IMG/VR virus record: IMGVR_UViG_3300022924_000016
Coordinates: 32,001-96,000 of that record
Source of the DNA: a virus
Length of the DNA stretch: 64,000 bases
Reading direction: 5' to 3' (one strand)
The translations under genes were made by a program, and so were the position numbers. Positions 6,857 through 15,600 of this stretch are shown piece by piece. The notes beneath the pieces were generated by a model. That model had not been told where the DNA came from, did not search any database, and was given only the letters and a program-made list of their open reading frames with translations. Position 1 is the stretch's first letter, and each line of letters opens with the position of its first letter.

Positions 6857-7088
6857 CTATTATCTGTGGAGATTTTGTTAAGTTTTGATTTTCTTTTATT
6901 CCATCGTGAATCCTAAAGTAGTGATTTTTAATATCATCTTCAAAATAGTTTTCACTCACCCTCACTTCAACTTCGGTTTCATCTGAAAACTGAAAATATT
7001 GTGCTTTATGTGTTAGGGGTACTTGATTACAAAAGTAAACTAAATCACCTTTTATTTTTACCAAGTATAAAAATTCTTTCTTTTCCAT
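6831..7088 (-). CDS. Hypothetical protein
   Basis: 85-aa ORF in operon. Confidence 0.65.
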   Translation of the reverse strand: MEKKEFLYLVKIKGDLVYFCNQVPLTHKAQYFQFSDETEVEVRVSENYFEDDIKNHYFRIHDGIKENQNLTKSPQIIVERFEILF

Positions 7089-7089
7089 T

Positions 7090-7338
7090 TTAATATTTTT
7101 CTAAGTCTTCAATTACAGTGAACCAAAACTCTAAATCGTCTATTTCATAACCTTTTACTAAATATATTTGTTCATTTCTATTAATCATAGATATTTGAGA
7201 TTGCACCAACATTATTGCATTATTTACAGCCTCTTCCTTATGCTCATTAATATCTATTATAGGAGTATTGTGCAATTTAAAATAGTATATTGAATAGCTG
7301 TTTATCAATCTATTAACTATTTTTTTAATTTTGTCCAT
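7090..7338 (-). CDS. Hypothetical protein
   Basis: 82-aa ORF in operon. Confidence 0.65.
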   Translation of the reverse strand: MDKIKKIVNRLINSYSIYYFKLHNTPIIDINEHKEEAVNNAIMLVQSQISMINRNEQIYLVKGYEIDDLEFWFTVIEDLEKY

Positions 7339-7371
7339 AATTCTTATTTAGAAAGTAAAGGTAAGCTTTAA

Positions 7372-8583
7372 TTATTTATTATCCAAATTTTTATAATCTA
7401 AATTTAAAATTTTAACAGAATCTTTTATATACCTGTACCACCTTTTTACTGTTCCCATTGACATATCTGAATTATTTACAATGGATATTTGGTCTATTTT
7501 CCCAAAGTTTTCAAAGTCCCAATCGTTTATAATCTTAAACATTTTTGATATTGTATTCTCCCTTCTTATTTTTGCTATTTGATTTACACTTAATGAGCGT
7601 CTTTCCTTAACACTAAAGTTATAGTCAGGGTTAAAAAGAATTCGCTTGGTCTTGTTAAGTATTATTTTTGGAGCATCTTGATTAAATACATTCTTAACAA
7701 TATTTAAAAGTTCTGATTTTTCTAAAGGTGGCTTAAATCTATCTTCGTTAACCACTTGTGCCCAACTTGTAAGTTGTGAGATATTAATCCAATTATTCAG
7801 TCCATAAAATTGACTCAAAACTGAAAACATTACCGTATTTCTATTTCCCAAAGTTACTATTGGTATGTAAACTTCTGAATAACATATTTTGTTATCTCCT
7901 AAATCTATGAAAGGTTCTCCGTTAAAATCTATGTCAGAAATTTTGTCTTGTAAATTTGTATACCTATATTTTGTATCCTCAAAAAGATTCGTTCTCTCGC
8001 ATCCTATAATATTATTAGTTTTAATGTTACTGAACGAAACTTTATCCTTTATAACCTTTAAGCATTCCTTATATTCATAAGTAGAGTAGAACTCATTGTA
8101 GTAAATATCTTTATCATAAGATAATACGCATAACCTATCTATTGATATAGCCCTTGTATCAATCTCTATTCCTAATTCATCTCCTAATTTTTTAGTAACT
8201 TCCTTATAGTTTGTAACTGTTAAACCTTTAACTGATAATAAAATCCCAAAACCCTTGTTTGATAAACTTTTCCAAAAAGAAACCACGTAAGGTATTTCAG
8301 ATAGATTTATACTTTCTACATTATCTATATCCAAATAGAGAAATCCTGTAGGATTTACAACAGTACTTCCGCTTACATAACTGTCGTGTGAAAAATTAAA
8401 AACTATTGACGGCAAGCCACACTTTAAAACAGAATATTTTTCAGATTTTCTGTCAAGGGTTCTTGCAAAATCAACTTGTGACTTTCTAATATGGTCAGGA
8501 TTTCTAATAGATTCTACAAAATCTGGTAATGTAAGTAGACCTATAATATCTCTCTTCTTAATATTCGCGACTAAATCAAACAT
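7372..8583 (-). CDS. Primase-like replication protein: BT4734/VirE N-terminal (AEP-type) domain plus PriCT-like domain and C-terminal HTH
   Basis: K..LP...F, TGFLYLDID, WKSLSNKG, DRLCVLSYD motifs of the BT4734-like N-terminal family; GNRNTVMF...PPLEKSEL resembles PriCT-1; SMGTVKRW is HTH-like. Confidence 0.75.
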   Translation of the reverse strand: MFDLVANIKKRDIIGLLTLPDFVESIRNPDHIRKSQVDFARTLDRKSEKYSVLKCGLPSIVFNFSHDSYVSGSTVVNPTGFLYLDIDNVESINLSEIPYVVSFWKSLSNKGFGILLSVKGLTVTNYKEVTKKLGDELGIEIDTRAISIDRLCVLSYDKDIYYNEFYSTYEYKECLKVIKDKVSFSNIKTNNIIGCERTNLFEDTKYRYTNLQDKISDIDFNGEPFIDLGDNKICYSEVYIPIVTLGNRNTVMFSVLSQFYGLNNWINISQLTSWAQVVNEDRFKPPLEKSELLNIVKNVFNQDAPKIILNKTKRILFNPDYNFSVKERRSLSVNQIAKIRRENTISKMFKIINDWDFENFGKIDQISIVNNSDMSMGTVKRWYRYIKDSVKILNLDYKNLDNK

Positions 8584-8589
8584 ATATAA

Positions 8590-8725
8590 AATTAAAAATC
8601 CCCGAATAATAAAAACCTTAAAGTGGAAAGGAGGCTTCTATTAAACAGGGAAATCTTAAATTCTGTTATAATTGTATTTTTTGCTACCCTTTCCACAGAA
8701 TCACAAAAACCTATATTTTAATTTT
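8590..8725 (-). promoter_or_regulatory. Structured 5' leader: terminator-like hairpin whose loop is complementary to an upstream segment (pseudoknot/attenuator)
   Basis: Hairpin arms 8632-8651 / 8599-8618 (18 of 20 pairs, with G-U pairs only on the minus strand) followed by a U-tract; loop CCUUUCCAC (8623-8631) perfectly complements GUGGAAAGG (8688-8696). Confidence 0.7.
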
Positions 8726-8730
8726 GTATG

Positions 8731-8762
8731 CAAATGTAGCTATTATATTCTTAATAACCAAA
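8731..8762 (-). promoter_or_regulatory. Bacteroidota primary-sigma promoter
   Basis: TTTG-N20-TACATTTG on the minus strand, upstream of the primase-like gene. Confidence 0.8.
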
Positions 8763-8766
8763 CAGT

Positions 8767-8979
8767 TTAACCTTTCACTAAGAAAAATAAAGCCGTTTCT
8801 AAGACCTGAGCATCTCTTTTTATTGATATTTCCTGAACTTCGCTGGTATAATAACTGTTCCAAAGCGAATAAAGGATTTCTTCTCTTTTTTCCTCTTGAA
8901 AGGAATTTATTATAAGTTCATTCAAGAAACCGTAGATCACTTCTTTATATTCGAAGAATCCGAGTTTGTCTTTTTGCAT
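8767..8979 (-). CDS. Hypothetical protein
   Basis: 70-aa ORF just downstream of a consensus promoter. Confidence 0.65.
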   Translation of the reverse strand: MQKDKLGFFEYKEVIYGFLNELIINSFQEEKREEILYSLWNSYYTSEVQEISIKRDAQVLETALFFLVKG

Positions 8980-9001
8980 TTTAATTTCTTTTTTCTCCCG
9001 A

Positions 9002-9033
9002 CAAAGATAATAAATTTAATTCTTTTAAGCAAA
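9002..9033 (-). promoter_or_regulatory. Bacteroidota promoter, leftward
   Basis: TTTG-N20-TATCTTTG on the minus strand. Confidence 0.8.
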
Positions 9034-9077
9034 TCAGTAAATAGAATATTTATCGCTGTTAAACTTTAGTTAAAGTT

Positions 9078-9109
9078 CTTGTGTATTAAATTATATATTA
9101 ATATCTTTG
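9078..9109 (+). promoter_or_regulatory. Bacteroidota promoter, rightward
   Basis: CTTG-N20-TATCTTTG; divergent from the 9002-9033 promoter at the strand switch. Confidence 0.75.
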
Positions 9110-9113
9110 TATA

Positions 9114-9542
9114 GTGAAGCGTAAATACAATGTAAAGCAAAAATATTATACGAGGTTCATTCTTTTGATAGAAGCGGAATTATTAAGCCAAGACTTTATT
9201 TTAGACAAGAAGAATTTAGATATGAAATACTACCTCAAAGGAGATTATGGAGTTTTCATACCTAAAAAATTAGTTGAAGATTTAGGTCTTGTGATAATCA
9301 CTTACAAAGACTTATCAATCGGATACATAAAATTTGATGATTTCCCCTTTGGTCAAAAACCCGCATTCATTCAAAGAAGAAAAGATTTTTTGCAATCAAT
9401 AAATTCAATAATAGAAACACATAAATATGAACTTGACATTCCCTGGAAAAAAATTAATCGTATCAAACATAAGCTCAGAACCTTTGGGGGGGACATCTTC
9501 CACAGTGCAAGTTTTATTTGCAGGAGAGGATTCCTTCTATAA
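9114..9542 (+). CDS. Hypothetical protein; start uncertain (GTG 9114 or ATG 9222)
   Basis: First ORF after the rightward promoter; overlaps the next gene by 116 nt. Confidence 0.55.
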   Translation: MKRKYNVKQKYYTRFILLIEAELLSQDFILDKKNLDMKYYLKGDYGVFIPKKLVEDLGLVIITYKDLSIGYIKFDDFPFGQKPAFIQRRKDFLQSINSIIETHKYELDIPWKKINRIKHKLRTFGGDIFHSASFICRRGFLL

Positions 9543-9669
9543 GAAAGGGGATAATGTCTTGATTTTTTCTAAGAACGAGCATCCCAAAATAAAATTTAAA
9601 GATATCGACGGACTTTGGATAAGAAACTCTGATTTGGAAGTCGTAGGAAGGGTGGAAGAGAATGAGTAG
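9427..9669 (+). CDS. GroES-like co-chaperonin
   Basis: 80 aa; pattern FPGKKLIV...VQVLFAGEDS.YKKGDNVL...IKFKD..LWIRNSDLEVVG parallels the GroES strands. Confidence 0.55.
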   Translation: MNLTFPGKKLIVSNISSEPLGGTSSTVQVLFAGEDSFYKKGDNVLIFSKNEHPKIKFKDIDGLWIRNSDLEVVGRVEENE

Positions 9670-10039
9670 TCCCGTAGCTTTAAAATTAGACTTTGAGTAC
9701 TCTAATGATTTCAGGTTCATGGACTGCTTGATTTATATGTTTTCAAGGTGCCAAAAAAATTATATCTTATCCAAGACAGAGTGTGAGATTTTAAGGGAGT
9801 ACCTTTTAAGGGGATATTCATCGGAGACTAAAAAGCACATAGTTAAATCTTTGAAGACCACTATAACAAGCGTAAATACTTTGAATTGCAACTTGCAGAA
9901 GAAAGGTTTTCTGATGCCCGATCCAAATAAGCAGATAAACAAAACTTTGAATCCTGAGCTTTTAAAATTAAAGCAGTTTTACGAAACAGACTCGCAAAGA
10001 AAAGTACTGCTTATAAATTTCATAGACGAAAATGTTTAA
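9662..10039 (+). CDS. Winged-helix DNA-binding protein (putative)
   Basis: LSKTECEIL...IVKSLKTTITSVNTLNCNLQKKGFL is a MarR/wHTH-like pattern. Confidence 0.55.
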   Translation: MSSPVALKLDFEYSNDFRFMDCLIYMFSRCQKNYILSKTECEILREYLLRGYSSETKKHIVKSLKTTITSVNTLNCNLQKKGFLMPDPNKQINKTLNPELLKLKQFYETDSQRKVLLINFIDENV

Positions 10040-10424
10040 GGTAAAAGACCCTCTGATAACAGAAGAGATGATTATCCAAAATTACCTGCAAAGAGGAAAT
10101 AAAAAGGATGAAAGGGCGGTGAGAGAAGTGTGGCGGGTCTTAAAGGAGTTCATAAAACAGTCGGGAAAGACTCATACCAAAATAAAAATAGGGAACAGGC
10201 TAGAAATATTCTCCGATTTATATCTGAAAGCTGAAACAAAAGAGTATGAGGGAGAACAGCTTCAATACCTGATGAACAGTTTATACTGCGACAAGCCAAG
10301 AAAGTATGATGAGAACTACCTAATGAATTCAAAGTACCGAGAAAATAACATAGAAGAAATAGTAGAAGATGTGGAAAACTTTTTTAAGAATCCTCCTTTC
10401 AAGAATAAGAAAACAAAAGAGTAA
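10032..10424 (+). CDS. Hypothetical protein, possibly divergent IHF/HU-like
   Basis: Helix-helix followed by IKIGNRLEIF strand; located before the terminase, as IHF-like genes are in crAss-like phages. Confidence 0.4.
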   Translation: MFKVKDPLITEEMIIQNYLQRGNKKDERAVREVWRVLKEFIKQSGKTHTKIKIGNRLEIFSDLYLKAETKEYEGEQLQYLMNSLYCDKPRKYDENYLMNSKYRENNIEEIVEDVENFFKNPPFKNKKTKE

Positions 10425-10677
10425 CAGGAAAATCTCAGAGAGAATAGAAGAATGCCTCAACTGCCCCAAGAACAGCTTGAACATGAAAGAAAGTGAAATA
10501 CCAAAAAGCAAAAAACTTTTAATAAGACTTTCAAACTTCTATTCTCTGATTACAGGACAAAAACACAAAGACAAATTTGGCAATTGCACAGCTTGTCATT
10601 CTTGCTCGGTATATTATAAAGCAAGAGAAGGAGAATGGGAAAATTGCCCCGAAAACAAATGGAAACAATGGAAATAG
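10369..10677 (+). CDS. Cys-rich zinc-binding protein
   Basis: RIEECLNCP...CTACHSC...KAR...CPENKW. Confidence 0.7.
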   Translation: MWKTFLRILLSRIRKQKSNRKISERIEECLNCPKNSLNMKESEIPKSKKLLIRLSNFYSLITGQKHKDKFGNCTACHSCSVYYKAREGEWENCPENKWKQWK

Positions 10678-12614: not shown

Positions 12615-15600
12615 TAGCAACGAGCAGATTGATGAGTTCATAAAAAGAAATAGTCCCCGATTCAAGAAGTGGAAACAGCATTTAGATGATTTCGATTGGA
12701 GCAAGGACGTTCACCTTTTATTTATAGAAGAAAAAGACATAGTTATGTTCGGAAAGACGGCGAACTATGAGCACGAATTTTATCAAAAAGATAATGAATT
12801 TAGAGTACAGGTCGGTTTAGTTAAGAAAATACTAGACCGACTTAAGTTTTTTATAGACAAGTCAAAAGGAGATTATAAAAATCCCAAGTTCAAGGCATTT
12901 TTCAAACTCGCCACAAACATAATAAGCATCCACCTAAAAAGATGTGACAAGTATTCCTTAGAAATTGACGAGACGGATATAAAAATCCACGATCTGAGAA
13001 GCAAGGAAGCAAAGTTCAATTCAGAAGTATTCGCAGAATATTCAAAAGTTGACAGCACTCTAAGTTCATACGGCTTCGTTGAAGAGGAAGATAAAGGCTC
13101 AGACTATATTGAGTTCTTTGATAACAAGAAAGCTTCTCTAGCAGTCTATAAAGAGGTTGTCAGAGATTTTCCCGCAGTAAAGGAGAAGATGAAAACAATG
13201 AAAATTGATTTTGACTCTTTAGCTCCCCAAAACTTACACATATTAAATGAAAACCCACCGATATGGAATCCAGAAAAACACTTCTGGGAGCAGGAAAAAG
13301 AAACAGTTCAATATTATGTGGATGAGTTAAAAAAGATAGAAGACGGAGTAGAGATTGACGGAGTTTACTTTGATGGATGGATATACTACCACATAAATCA
13401 TTTCAGAGTTAAGTATCCAACAACAGTAATGGTTAATGGGCATCCAAAATCTAAAGATGTTACAGGTAGACCCCCTTTAAGGGACAATGAGTGGATTATG
13501 TCTGAATATTTTATTAAGGCTAGTCGAGAACAGGGTTATGCACTTATCGCTGCCACAAGACGTGCCGCTAAGACAACTTTAAATGCGTCTCGTGTTGAGA
13601 GGGCTAAAGTTCTTGGTAGAATGGGTATATTATTAGCAGGCGGGTCTTCCTCAGATTTAGGTCAGATTATTGATAATTGTAAGGTCAATATGGATAATTG
13701 TGAACCAGCCTTTGCATTAGATTCTTTAGGGGAAACTAAAGAAGGTAAGGGAGAAGAATTTGGTATTAGAACGAAAGACAATAAACGTAAACGACATGCT
13801 GCTTTATATGTTAAAAATCTCGACGGAGGAACTAATAAGAAAAAAGGTGAATCCTTAGCAGGATTCACTATTGATGAATTTATTTTAGATGAGGCTTTCA
13901 AATTTCCTTTTATGAATCAACTACAAGGATTGGAACCAGCTTTGTTTGGAGAAGGTGTAATGAGAGCAACGCCATTACTAACAGCTTGTGTTTGTGCGGG
14001 AACTAAGGTTTGGAATAACGAAGGTAATTTAGTAAATATAGAAGATTTAAAACAAGATGATGGAATTGTAGGTTTTGATATAATTGAAGAAAAAATATCA
14101 AAAGAAAACATAACTTACTGGCAAAAACCTATTGAAAAAGAATGTTATAGATTGACAACAAATAAAGGAAGAATTCTTGAATGTAGTCATGATCATCCTA
14201 TATTAACTCGTACAAGAGATGCTTGGGATTTCAGAAAAGGTAGAGATAAACCTTTTAGAAAAATGTTTTTTGACAAGACTGAAAATTTAAAAGTAGGTCA
14301 AAATATAGGAACTGTTGAAAACATTCCAATCGAAGGTAATAATAGAATGTGGAATCCAAGACTGGTGGGACTTTTAATAGGAGATGGAAGTTATGGTAAA
14401 GATAAAACACCTATTTTATCCAACTGTGATGAAGAGGTAAATTCATATATCTCTAACAATTTTGATTGTATAGTAGAAAGGGAAAGGCTTACTTTAGATG
14501 GAAAACATTATAAAGAGACAAGAATAAAAGGAATAACTAAAGAATTAAGAAACTTAGGTATATATGGACAAACTAAAAATAATAAAAGATTGCCATTAAA
14601 CGTACATTCTTATAGAAACGAAGATATTTATGAATTGGTTGCAGGACTAATAGATTCCGATGGACACGTAAGCATATCAAAAAATAATGCTACTATTGGA
14701 GTAACTTTTTCAGGAATAGAATTAACAAGAGAATTACAGCTCTTGTTACAGAAAATAGGAATACATTCTAATATACAAAAAAAGATGCCGAGTAAAAGTA
14801 GCTATGGTACAAATCCATATTATACTCTACAAATATTAGACAGAGATAGTATATTAGTTTTTTGCGAAAAAATAAAATTATTAATTAAGTATAAGCAAAT
14901 TAATTTAGAGAGATTAATTGATATCTATAAACACAGGAAGAGTGGGGCAAAACAAAAAAATTTAAAGAATATAAGATTTGAAAATATAGTAAGTATAGAA
15001 AATATAGGTCTCAAACCTGTATATAATTTAACTGCTGAAAATACTAACACCTATATTGCAAATGGGATAATAACACATAATACAGGAGGCGATGACGAAT
15101 TAGCAGCAGACGGTATAAAAATGTTGAGCAATCCTGAAGCAAATAAGGTGATTTTAATGAATTGGGATGACTTGAATAGAGGTGTTCCTAGCGAGCACAA
15201 AACTTGGACTGAAAGACCTTTTGGACTATTTTTACCAGGTCAAATGTCGATTAGATTCGGCCAAAAGAATGCTATGACTATGAGTGACTATTTAGGCTTA
15301 AAAGCTGAAAATTGTCCTAGTCTCTCAAAACTTATAATAGGCGTTACTGATTGGAAAAAAACACTTGACAATATAAATATAGAGAGAGATAATAAAGTTA
15401 GCGATAAAAAAGCTTATGTTAAATTACTTGCTTATCATCCAATAGACCCCTCTGAAATATTTCTTTCGGGTAAAGTTAATCCCTTTCCTGTTGCAGAAGC
15501 AAAAGCTCACAGAAAATATTTATGGGAATCAGGATTGTGGGATAGACGTAGAGAACTCTACAAGGATTCAAATGGAAAGATACAAGTAGAACTTTCGCAG

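Follow-up and report, generated by a model that had tools for sequence, protein, structure and literature searches.

What does a long, structured leader do in front of a phage primase-like gene? The question is raised by a locus in the IMG/VR record IMGVR_UViG_3300022924_000016 (141,323 bp, estimated to be 96% complete), of which we analysed bases 32001-96000, a stretch of 64 kb that is hereafter called the window. The product of the gene contains the Pfam domains BT4734-like_N (2.2e-07) and PriCT_1 (3.4e-05) and is weakly matched by PHROG 18375, DNA primase/helicase. Its leader lies between the gene and a 70-aa ORF on the same strand (Table 1); on the other side, the primase-like gene is followed by small ORFs, a D12-class adenine methyltransferase and a superfamily-2 helicase. 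The 70-aa ORF aligns with ORFs of 84-106 aa that are found upstream of the leader at the related loci L069, L070, L073, L075, L077 and L078 (16-32% identity). It is predicted to form four helices (pLDDT 80.5), belongs to no Pfam or PHROG family and gave no fold match at E <= 0.001. The cellular relatives of the primase-like protein come from Chryseobacterium, Elizabethkingia, Flavobacterium and other Bacteroidota, which points to a Flavobacteriia-like host clade and thus to the promoter type of the Flavobacteriia. A blastn query with positions 7372-9120 against public phage records did not result in a match, and single-protein scans of viral contigs returned no relatives of the primase or of the LAGLIDADG and Zn-ribbon endonucleases described below.

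The first-pass annotation of the window had described a consensus promoter, a hairpin just before the AUG and a complement to the hairpin loop, all on the minus strand, and the sequence bears out each of these elements. Promoters of the Bacteroidota have the consensus TTTG at -33 and TAnnTTTG at -7, and the stretch from 8762 to 8731 reads TTTG-N20-TAcaTTTG, i.e. a sigma-A promoter of this -33/-7 type. In Flavobacterium, the -7 box occupies positions -12 to -5 and the median 5' UTR has a length of 24 nt (PMC9723704). With the same spacing, transcription should start near 8726 and the leader should measure ~143 nt, in line with the earlier estimate of about 140 nt. A generic sigma-70/terminator scan calls neither the promoter nor the hairpin, as it is blind to the Bacteroidota promoter type and to loops of more than 8 nt.

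Table 1. Positions of the leader elements, the neighbouring genes and the further copies. Positions up to 64,000 refer to the window and higher ones to the whole record; those of the last line refer to the record named there.
Feature	Position	Strand	Sequence	Basis or remark
Primase-like gene	7372-8583	-		403 aa, AUG at 8583
U-run, terminator-like tail	8588-8598	-	UUUUUAAUUUU	sequence
HP2 3' arm	8599-8618	-	G+C-rich base CGGGGA	sequence, fold
HP2 loop, 13 nt	8619-8631	-	K2 CCUUUCCAC (8631-8623), then UUUA	sequence
HP2 5' arm	8632-8651	-		sequence, fold
A-rich single-stranded linker	8652-8677	-		sequence
HP1, 5' hairpin region presenting K1	8678-8709	-		weakly defined in this phage
K1, partner of the HP2 loop	8688-8696	-	GUGGAAAGG	sequence; homologous position in 26 leaders
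-7 box (TAnnTTTG)	8731-8738	-	TACATTTG	sequence
-33 element	8759-8762	-	TTTG	sequence; 20 nt upstream of the -7 box
70-aa ORF upstream of the leader	8767-8979	-		kept in synteny
Further copy	~111983-112140	+	K1/K2 AGGGCAAGU / ACUUGCCCU	just after family-A DNA polymerase gene; then LAGLIDADG endonuclease gene
Further copy	~123967-124083	+	K1/K2 CUGGCAU / GUGCCAG	then PHROG-681/HNH-type endonuclease gene
Further copy	~131866-132004	+	K1/K2 UAUCUCAC / GUGAGAUA	then Zn-ribbon HNH/EndoVII-like protein gene
Second copy in G001 (IMGVR_UViG_3300020045_010129, phage of locus L002)	13100-13740	-	K1 AACCAUCAC, K2 GUGAUGGUU	between Thg1-like tRNA-His guanylyltransferase and DNA methyltransferase genes

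The hairpin, HP2, had been annotated as a 20-bp stem. A stem of 20 positions is indeed present (8651-8599), but it consists of 18 pairs and two U.U oppositions (8645/8644 with 8605/8606), and three of the pairs are G.U (8647.8603, 8638.8612 and 8635.8615). The AUG follows 15 nt after the stem, and the spacer before it is U-rich with no A at -3. The whole leader folds at -37.1 kcal/mol (z = -3.98), a stability that was reached by none of 200 shuffled sequences. In the minimum-energy fold, the entire leader is closed by a 14-nt complement (93%) between 8716-8729, at the predicted transcript start, and 8584-8597, which covers the U-run and the pre-AUG spacer. Many relatives likewise display an A-tract just 5' of HP2 that faces the U-run.

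Near the 5' end of the leader, K1 is an exact complement of the nine nucleotides of K2 in the HP2 loop, as the first annotation had claimed. The two sites are the only exact copies of this 9-mer in the 64-kb window, and when the upstream 130 nt were shuffled, a 9-nt loop complement arose in 1 of 500 cases. The computed stability of the K1:K2 duplex is about -13 kcal/mol, that of the HP2 arms about -23 kcal/mol.

Covariation in the leaders of homologous genes had been named as the check for this pairing. A large protein collection held 26 relatives of the primase-like protein with no more than 47% identity, and their DNA was drawn from viral, metagenome and genome collections plus exact look-up. 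The resulting 26 distinct leaders, which belong to primase homologues of 34-47% identity, share a common architecture: a 5' hairpin is followed by an A-rich linker, a terminator-like hairpin, a U-run and the AUG. The position of K1 is constant, its sequence is not. We found 25 different K1 sequences among the 26 leaders, with a mean of 8.7 bp in the loop-loop helix (for example GUAGGAGG/CCUCCUAC, AAUAGCCGA/UCGGCUAUU, AGCUACUAC/GUAGUAGCU and GUCGCAGC/GCUGCGAC). K1 is separated from the base of HP2 by 16-47 nt (median 30), and the end of HP2 from the AUG by 2-28 nt (median ~15). The HP2 stem of the relatives comprises 18-25 positions and its loop has 11-16 nt in most of them; the base is recurrently G+C-rich, internal loops of tandem U.U recur in the stem, and so does a UUUA-type spacer that follows K2.

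On a plain MAFFT alignment that had not been fitted to any structure, 84.9% of the cells in the eight column pairs of the kissing helix are paired, and all eight column pairs have changed on both sides. The covariation score of 0.731 compares with 0.272 for shuffled sequences (none of 500 reached the observed value) and with at most 0.246 for partners slid against each other. HP1, counted on the same alignment over six column pairs in 24 leaders, is paired in 79.2% of the cells, again with changes on both sides of every pair. One metagenome contig from a close relative, which differs from this phage by 27 substitutions and 5 gaps over 166 nt, shows a double compensatory change: GG to UU in K1 is accompanied by CC to AA in K2, and a flanking G.U has become U-A. 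A strict scan of ~350 kb of related loci detected 85 long-loop T-run hairpins, of which 24 have a loop complement of at least 7 nt upstream, 18 of them in primase leaders; a control region yielded only 4 such hairpins. Taken together, the comparison of the leaders shows that K1 and K2 do pair at the RNA level and that this pairing, on the terminator-like hairpin in the leader of the primase-like gene, is under selection.

HP2 itself required a different treatment. MAFFT misaligns the long hairpin, so that RNAalifold, when run on its raw alignment, found no structure, and structures voted by column from MAFFT alignments were unusable for HP2. We therefore aligned it with two covariance models, R1 and R2, and the resulting counts lean towards the model: 83.7% of the stem positions are paired, and 13 of 18 pairs have changed on both sides. 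Across the family, the stems contain 53 G.U pairs and only 2 A.C oppositions. It is thus the sense strand that folds, as the first-pass annotation had concluded from the G-U pairs of a single sequence.

A few variations were noticed among the relatives. A sub-family (L003:2790-2950, L013:20-150 and L045:1500-1640) has an extra upstream hairpin (AGAGGUGU...CCGAG.CUCU), whose 5' arm AGAGGUG can pair with CACCUCU of the HP2 loop, the nucleotides CAC being shared with K2. The arm is a possible alternative partner of the HP2 loop; it is invariant among the three loci and so permits no covariation test. At other loci (L012:2780-2860, L076:160-240 and L015:1-60, also L005, L007, L004 and L080) the leader is immediately preceded by a conserved stretch of ~60 nt. 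This stretch includes CAAUCCGUC...GGACGUUAAAAAAG and, inside it, the hairpin CACUAC/GUGGUG; neither ARAGORN nor Rfam calls it. In L017, L079, L080 and L012, genes for tRNA-Gln or tRNA-Asp are found just before the stretch. Distant primase-like homologues at chromosomal loci (L054-L067, from Chryseobacterium, Elizabethkingia and others) are preceded by a short plain hairpin, often GGCAUAG...CUAUGCC, with a T-run; in most of these loci its start is 15-26 nt away from the AUG, and its loop has no partner beyond what chance would give.

How are the two hairpins arranged with respect to each other? In most of the homologous leaders, K1 lies in the ~10-nt loop of a small HP1 of 4-9 bp. Since K1 is thus part of a hairpin loop of its own, the contact is a kissing loop, i.e. 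a loop-loop interaction. HP1 is poorly formed in the phage studied here. Of the 6 pairs given by the columns of the alignment, it has only 4 (8703-8698 with 8687-8682). A 6-bp helix between 8709-8704 and 8683-8678 is an alternative, and RNAfold favours a different local helix that covers part of K1. The first-pass annotation had left it open whether the 5' segment forms a pseudoknot on the terminator or competes with it. Pairing with the loop of a terminator-like hairpin is what we find; the idea of competition is not supported, as K1 contacts the loop of HP2 and not its stem, so that the pairing is compatible with a closed HP2.

This phage does carry a segment that resembles an antiterminator. 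Positions 8712-8698 can pair with the 5' arm of HP2 (duplex of -9.7 kcal/mol); they form one copy of a direct repeat, AGGUUUUUGUGAUUC / AGGUUUUUAUUAUUC, at 8698-8712 and 8604-8618 on the minus strand, and when only the first 95-115 nt are folded, the upstream copy pairs transiently with the 5' arm. A classic antiterminator helix is not conserved, however: over the 26 leaders, z against shuffles averages -0.07 and never falls below -2. By this measure the segment is a chance feature, specific to this phage.

From these data, we consider it somewhat probable (roughly 58%) that the leader is a cis-acting, structured, promoter-proximal attenuator of ~135-143 nt, in which the kissing loop holds the terminator hairpin. 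Transcription from the TAnnTTTG promoter would first produce the small 5' hairpin region, displaying the 8-9 nt of K1, then the A-rich linker, and finally the long imperfect HP2 with its G+C-rich base and U-run, whose loop would display K2. K1 and K2 would then join in a loop-loop helix of about -13 kcal/mol that leaves HP2 closed, and the kissing would most plausibly keep the terminator hairpin of the RNA closed. Transcription would then mostly end 5-15 nt short of the AUG. In the rare mRNAs that arise by read-through, a very stable structure would border on the ribosome landing site, which should matter since initiation in Bacteroidota needs unstructured, A-rich leaders (PMC6847099). Both effects would result in low or delayed expression of the primase-like gene and, likewise, of the endonuclease genes that follow other copies of the leader. 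This expectation fits the known behaviour of phage homing endonucleases, the expression of which is typically kept low in T-even phages (PMC2988022).

Several features of HP2 point to a terminator. The base CGGGGA leads directly into the U-run, and plain gene-end terminators of the same phages have an identical base and tail; the HP2 model matches these terminators as well, the common tail being GGGG(A)-U5-6-A-U4-A. This likeness argues that HP2 is an intrinsic terminator. As HP2 ends 2-28 nt before the AUG, there is no room for a separate promoter, and the downstream gene would be expressed only by read-through. On the other hand, HP2 is not a compact hairpin: a loop of 13 nt, where 3-8 nt are typical, and a stem of 20 positions with U.U oppositions are atypical of intrinsic terminators, and a loop-loop contact does not obviously alter the efficiency of a terminator. 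A look-up of sequencing runs recorded as RNA found none that contains this DNA. The poorly formed HP1 of this phage, the lack of a universal promoter and the distance of the second G001 copy from the next long ORF (both described below) likewise speak against the attenuator reading.

If HP2 does not terminate, the leader might act post-transcriptionally, as a translational damper or as a stabiliser of the mRNA 5' end, with the kissing loop compacting the 5' UTR beside an initiation site without a Shine-Dalgarno sequence. The structure of the mRNA and the A residues that precede the AUG modulate initiation in Bacteroidota (PMC6847099), and here HP2 stands close to the AUG with a U-rich spacer in between. 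There is also a precedent in seg43(25) of Aeromonas phage 25, where a very stable hairpin is located upstream of the ribosome site without covering it (PMC2988022). Translational control alone, however, does not need a G+C-rich base followed by U5-6-A-U4, the signature of plain gene-end terminators, and we regard this explanation as rather unlikely.

A promoter and a terminator-like end that bracket a unit without any ORF could equally mark an independent small RNA gene, the ~135-nt product of which acts in trans. Such an RNA might kiss the leader of its own locus while this is being transcribed, assemble into dimers or rings by means of its two complementary loops, or bind the adjacent protein. 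Rings that arise from two complementary loops on one RNA are known from the pRNA of phi29, and the orthogonal K1/K2 'address' of each copy in the genome (see below) would avoid cross-talk between such RNAs. But HP2 abuts a start codon in the same orientation, and since the gene behind it has no promoter of its own, read-through must occur. The linker between K1 and the HP2 base is flexible and permits pairing within one molecule; linker length does not correlate with the length of the HP2 arms (rho 0.06), so geometry offers no argument for pairing in cis. Many homologues, moreover, have no recognisable promoter of their own. A perfect box upstream of K1 is found in only 6 of the 26 homologous leaders, and some leaders are preceded by tRNA genes, so that an own promoter is not universal. 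Perfect TAnnTTTG boxes at a similar distance were seen in L004, L010, L011, L069 and L070, in copies 2 and 3 of this phage and in the second copy of G001. Altogether, a separate small RNA gene seems unlikely to us.

We searched the whole phage genome for further copies of the leader by a structural scan combined with the HP2 covariance model. Three more units of the same architecture were found, all outside the window and with K1/K2 sequences unrelated to those of the primase leader (Table 1). Each precedes a gene for an endonuclease or endonuclease-like protein. The R2 model is insensitive to diverged copies (E = 0.49 for copy 3 of this phage, copy 2 missed), and a relaxed genome scan for the architecture returned noise, with 18 matches compared to 14 in the control region. 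A related phage, G001, also carries a second copy, which is located 385 nt before the ATG of the DNA methyltransferase gene with no same-strand ORF of at least 40 aa in between. In the region 110552-112866 of the record, the family-A DNA polymerase ORF near one of the copies in this phage encodes 461 aa and matches only the C-terminal part of polymerase profiles; it is directly followed by the kissing-loop leader and then by the LAGLIDADG endonuclease gene. It is possible that this polymerase has been split by mobile insertions.

The leader is therefore a generic type and not a primase- or origin-specific device. This weakens two proposals of the first-pass annotation, autoregulation of a replication initiator and a primer or origin RNA, because the same architecture, with unrelated loops, stands before three endonuclease genes in the same genome. 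The leader does adjoin a replication gene, and from sequence alone the folding of the sense DNA strand, as in a single-stranded initiation signal for the primase, is indistinguishable from that of an RNA. Yet the endonuclease copies are scattered over the genome. A promoter stands at the beginning of several copies, every copy finishes with a U-run, and nearly every one adjoins a start codon. There are also no iterons around the leader, and we take an origin or primer RNA for replication, or an initiation signal in single-stranded DNA, to be very improbable.

The copies bear on a ligand-dependent mechanism as well. In the guanidine-IV and cobalamin riboswitches, the loop of the first hairpin kisses the loop of the expression-platform hairpin, and this topology matches the leader, in which a small molecule would then stabilise or break K1:K2. 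The kissing nucleotides vary almost from leader to leader, though, and are unrelated in the other copies; there is no conserved pocket and no Rfam match, and primase-like and endonuclease genes share no metabolite logic. We hold a riboswitch of this kind to be highly unlikely.

It is also conceivable, although we consider it quite improbable, that the units form an individually addressed control layer made of RNA only. Each unit would release a short terminated RNA with its private 8-9-nt loop code, which could feed back in trans on transcripts of that unit while they are being made, either by pairing with their K2 or K1 ahead of the cis contact or through dimers and rings. If this were true, read-through into the primase or nuclease gene would be set by the accumulated leader RNA, i.e. 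by a transcript-counting timer that works without a protein regulator.

The leader is of interest beyond this locus. Gene regulation is almost unexplored in phages of Bacteroidota, the hosts of which initiate translation without a leading Shine-Dalgarno sequence, and the leader is a candidate for a general means by which these phages throttle or time replication genes and selfish nuclease genes. With Rfam 15, a search of positions 7000-10500 at E up to 10 gave four chance-level matches, none of them on 8585-8762, which agrees with the first-pass statement that the RNA could not be assigned to a named family; at the gathering threshold, 18 homologous loci contained only tRNAs. A literature search for a kissing-loop primase leader found nothing relevant. 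A widespread leader without an Rfam match, in which a terminator hairpin is contacted loop to loop, would constitute a new family of RNAs. Its most useful member for study is the primase leader. At least 26 diverged phages carry it at orthologous positions and so provide a natural set of compensatory mutants, and it makes clear that the element also occurs outside mobile endonuclease cassettes. More speculatively, private loop codes of 8-9 nt might suit orthogonal RNA parts for the engineering of Bacteroidota.

Among known systems, the PR'-6S RNA-tR' unit of phage lambda, which is opened by Q, is similar in layout: a promoter runs into an intrinsic terminator 130-200 nt downstream, a short RNA is the default product, and the genes behind it need read-through. 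In the leader described here, a -7 box (8738-8731) and a U-run (8598-8588) also lie within ~200 nt of each other, as they do in copies 2 and 3. Searches of this phage for Q, N and NusG-like families gave nothing (the NusG, Q and Antiterm families PF02357, PF03589 and PF06530 have no member in the 141-kb record), although an antiterminator of an unrelated kind may exist. Whereas lambda has one unit for its whole late operon, here several units each precede a single accessory or replication gene. The 6S RNA of lambda, unlike this leader, has no covarying loop-loop contact with the terminator.

The leaders of homing endonuclease genes in T-even phages (I-TevI/II/III, segB, mobE and seg43(25); PMC2988022) are comparable in that 5' structures or terminators keep the expression of free-standing nuclease genes low or late. 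Their hairpins sequester the Shine-Dalgarno site and enclose a late promoter (PMC2988022), whereas in our leaders the AUG and the preceding 2-28 nt lie outside HP2, and no TAnnTTTG box was seen inside the hairpin or tail of this phage. Further differences are a host clade that does not use Shine-Dalgarno sequences, the kissing loop, and the fact that one member serves a conserved primase-like gene.

In the guanidine-IV (mepA) and cobalamin (L5-L13) riboswitches, an upstream loop likewise pairs with the expression-platform loop beside a terminator or initiation site. Their loop nucleotides are conserved and form or flank the ligand site, whereas those of the leader vary freely and build a longer helix of 8-9 bp.

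The leaders of plasmid rep genes offer another parallel, as long-range loop pairing (the repZ pseudoknot of ColIb-P9) or a terminator (attenuation in pT181 and pIP501) sets the expression of the initiator. These systems use antisense RNA, and repZ in addition a leader peptide and pairing beside the ribosome site, while the present leader contains no ORF and its type also serves genes that are not involved in replication.

Type III toxin-antitoxin systems (ToxIN) share the order of promoter, RNA, terminator and gene, as well as a potentially harmful product (nucleases in three of the four copies). They differ in that no tandem RNA repeats are present here (8400-9300) and that the downstream proteins are mutually unrelated DNA enzymes, not endoribonucleases. 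What sets the leader apart from all these analogues is that it neither sequesters the ribosome site nor contains a ligand pocket, and that its loop code varies freely.
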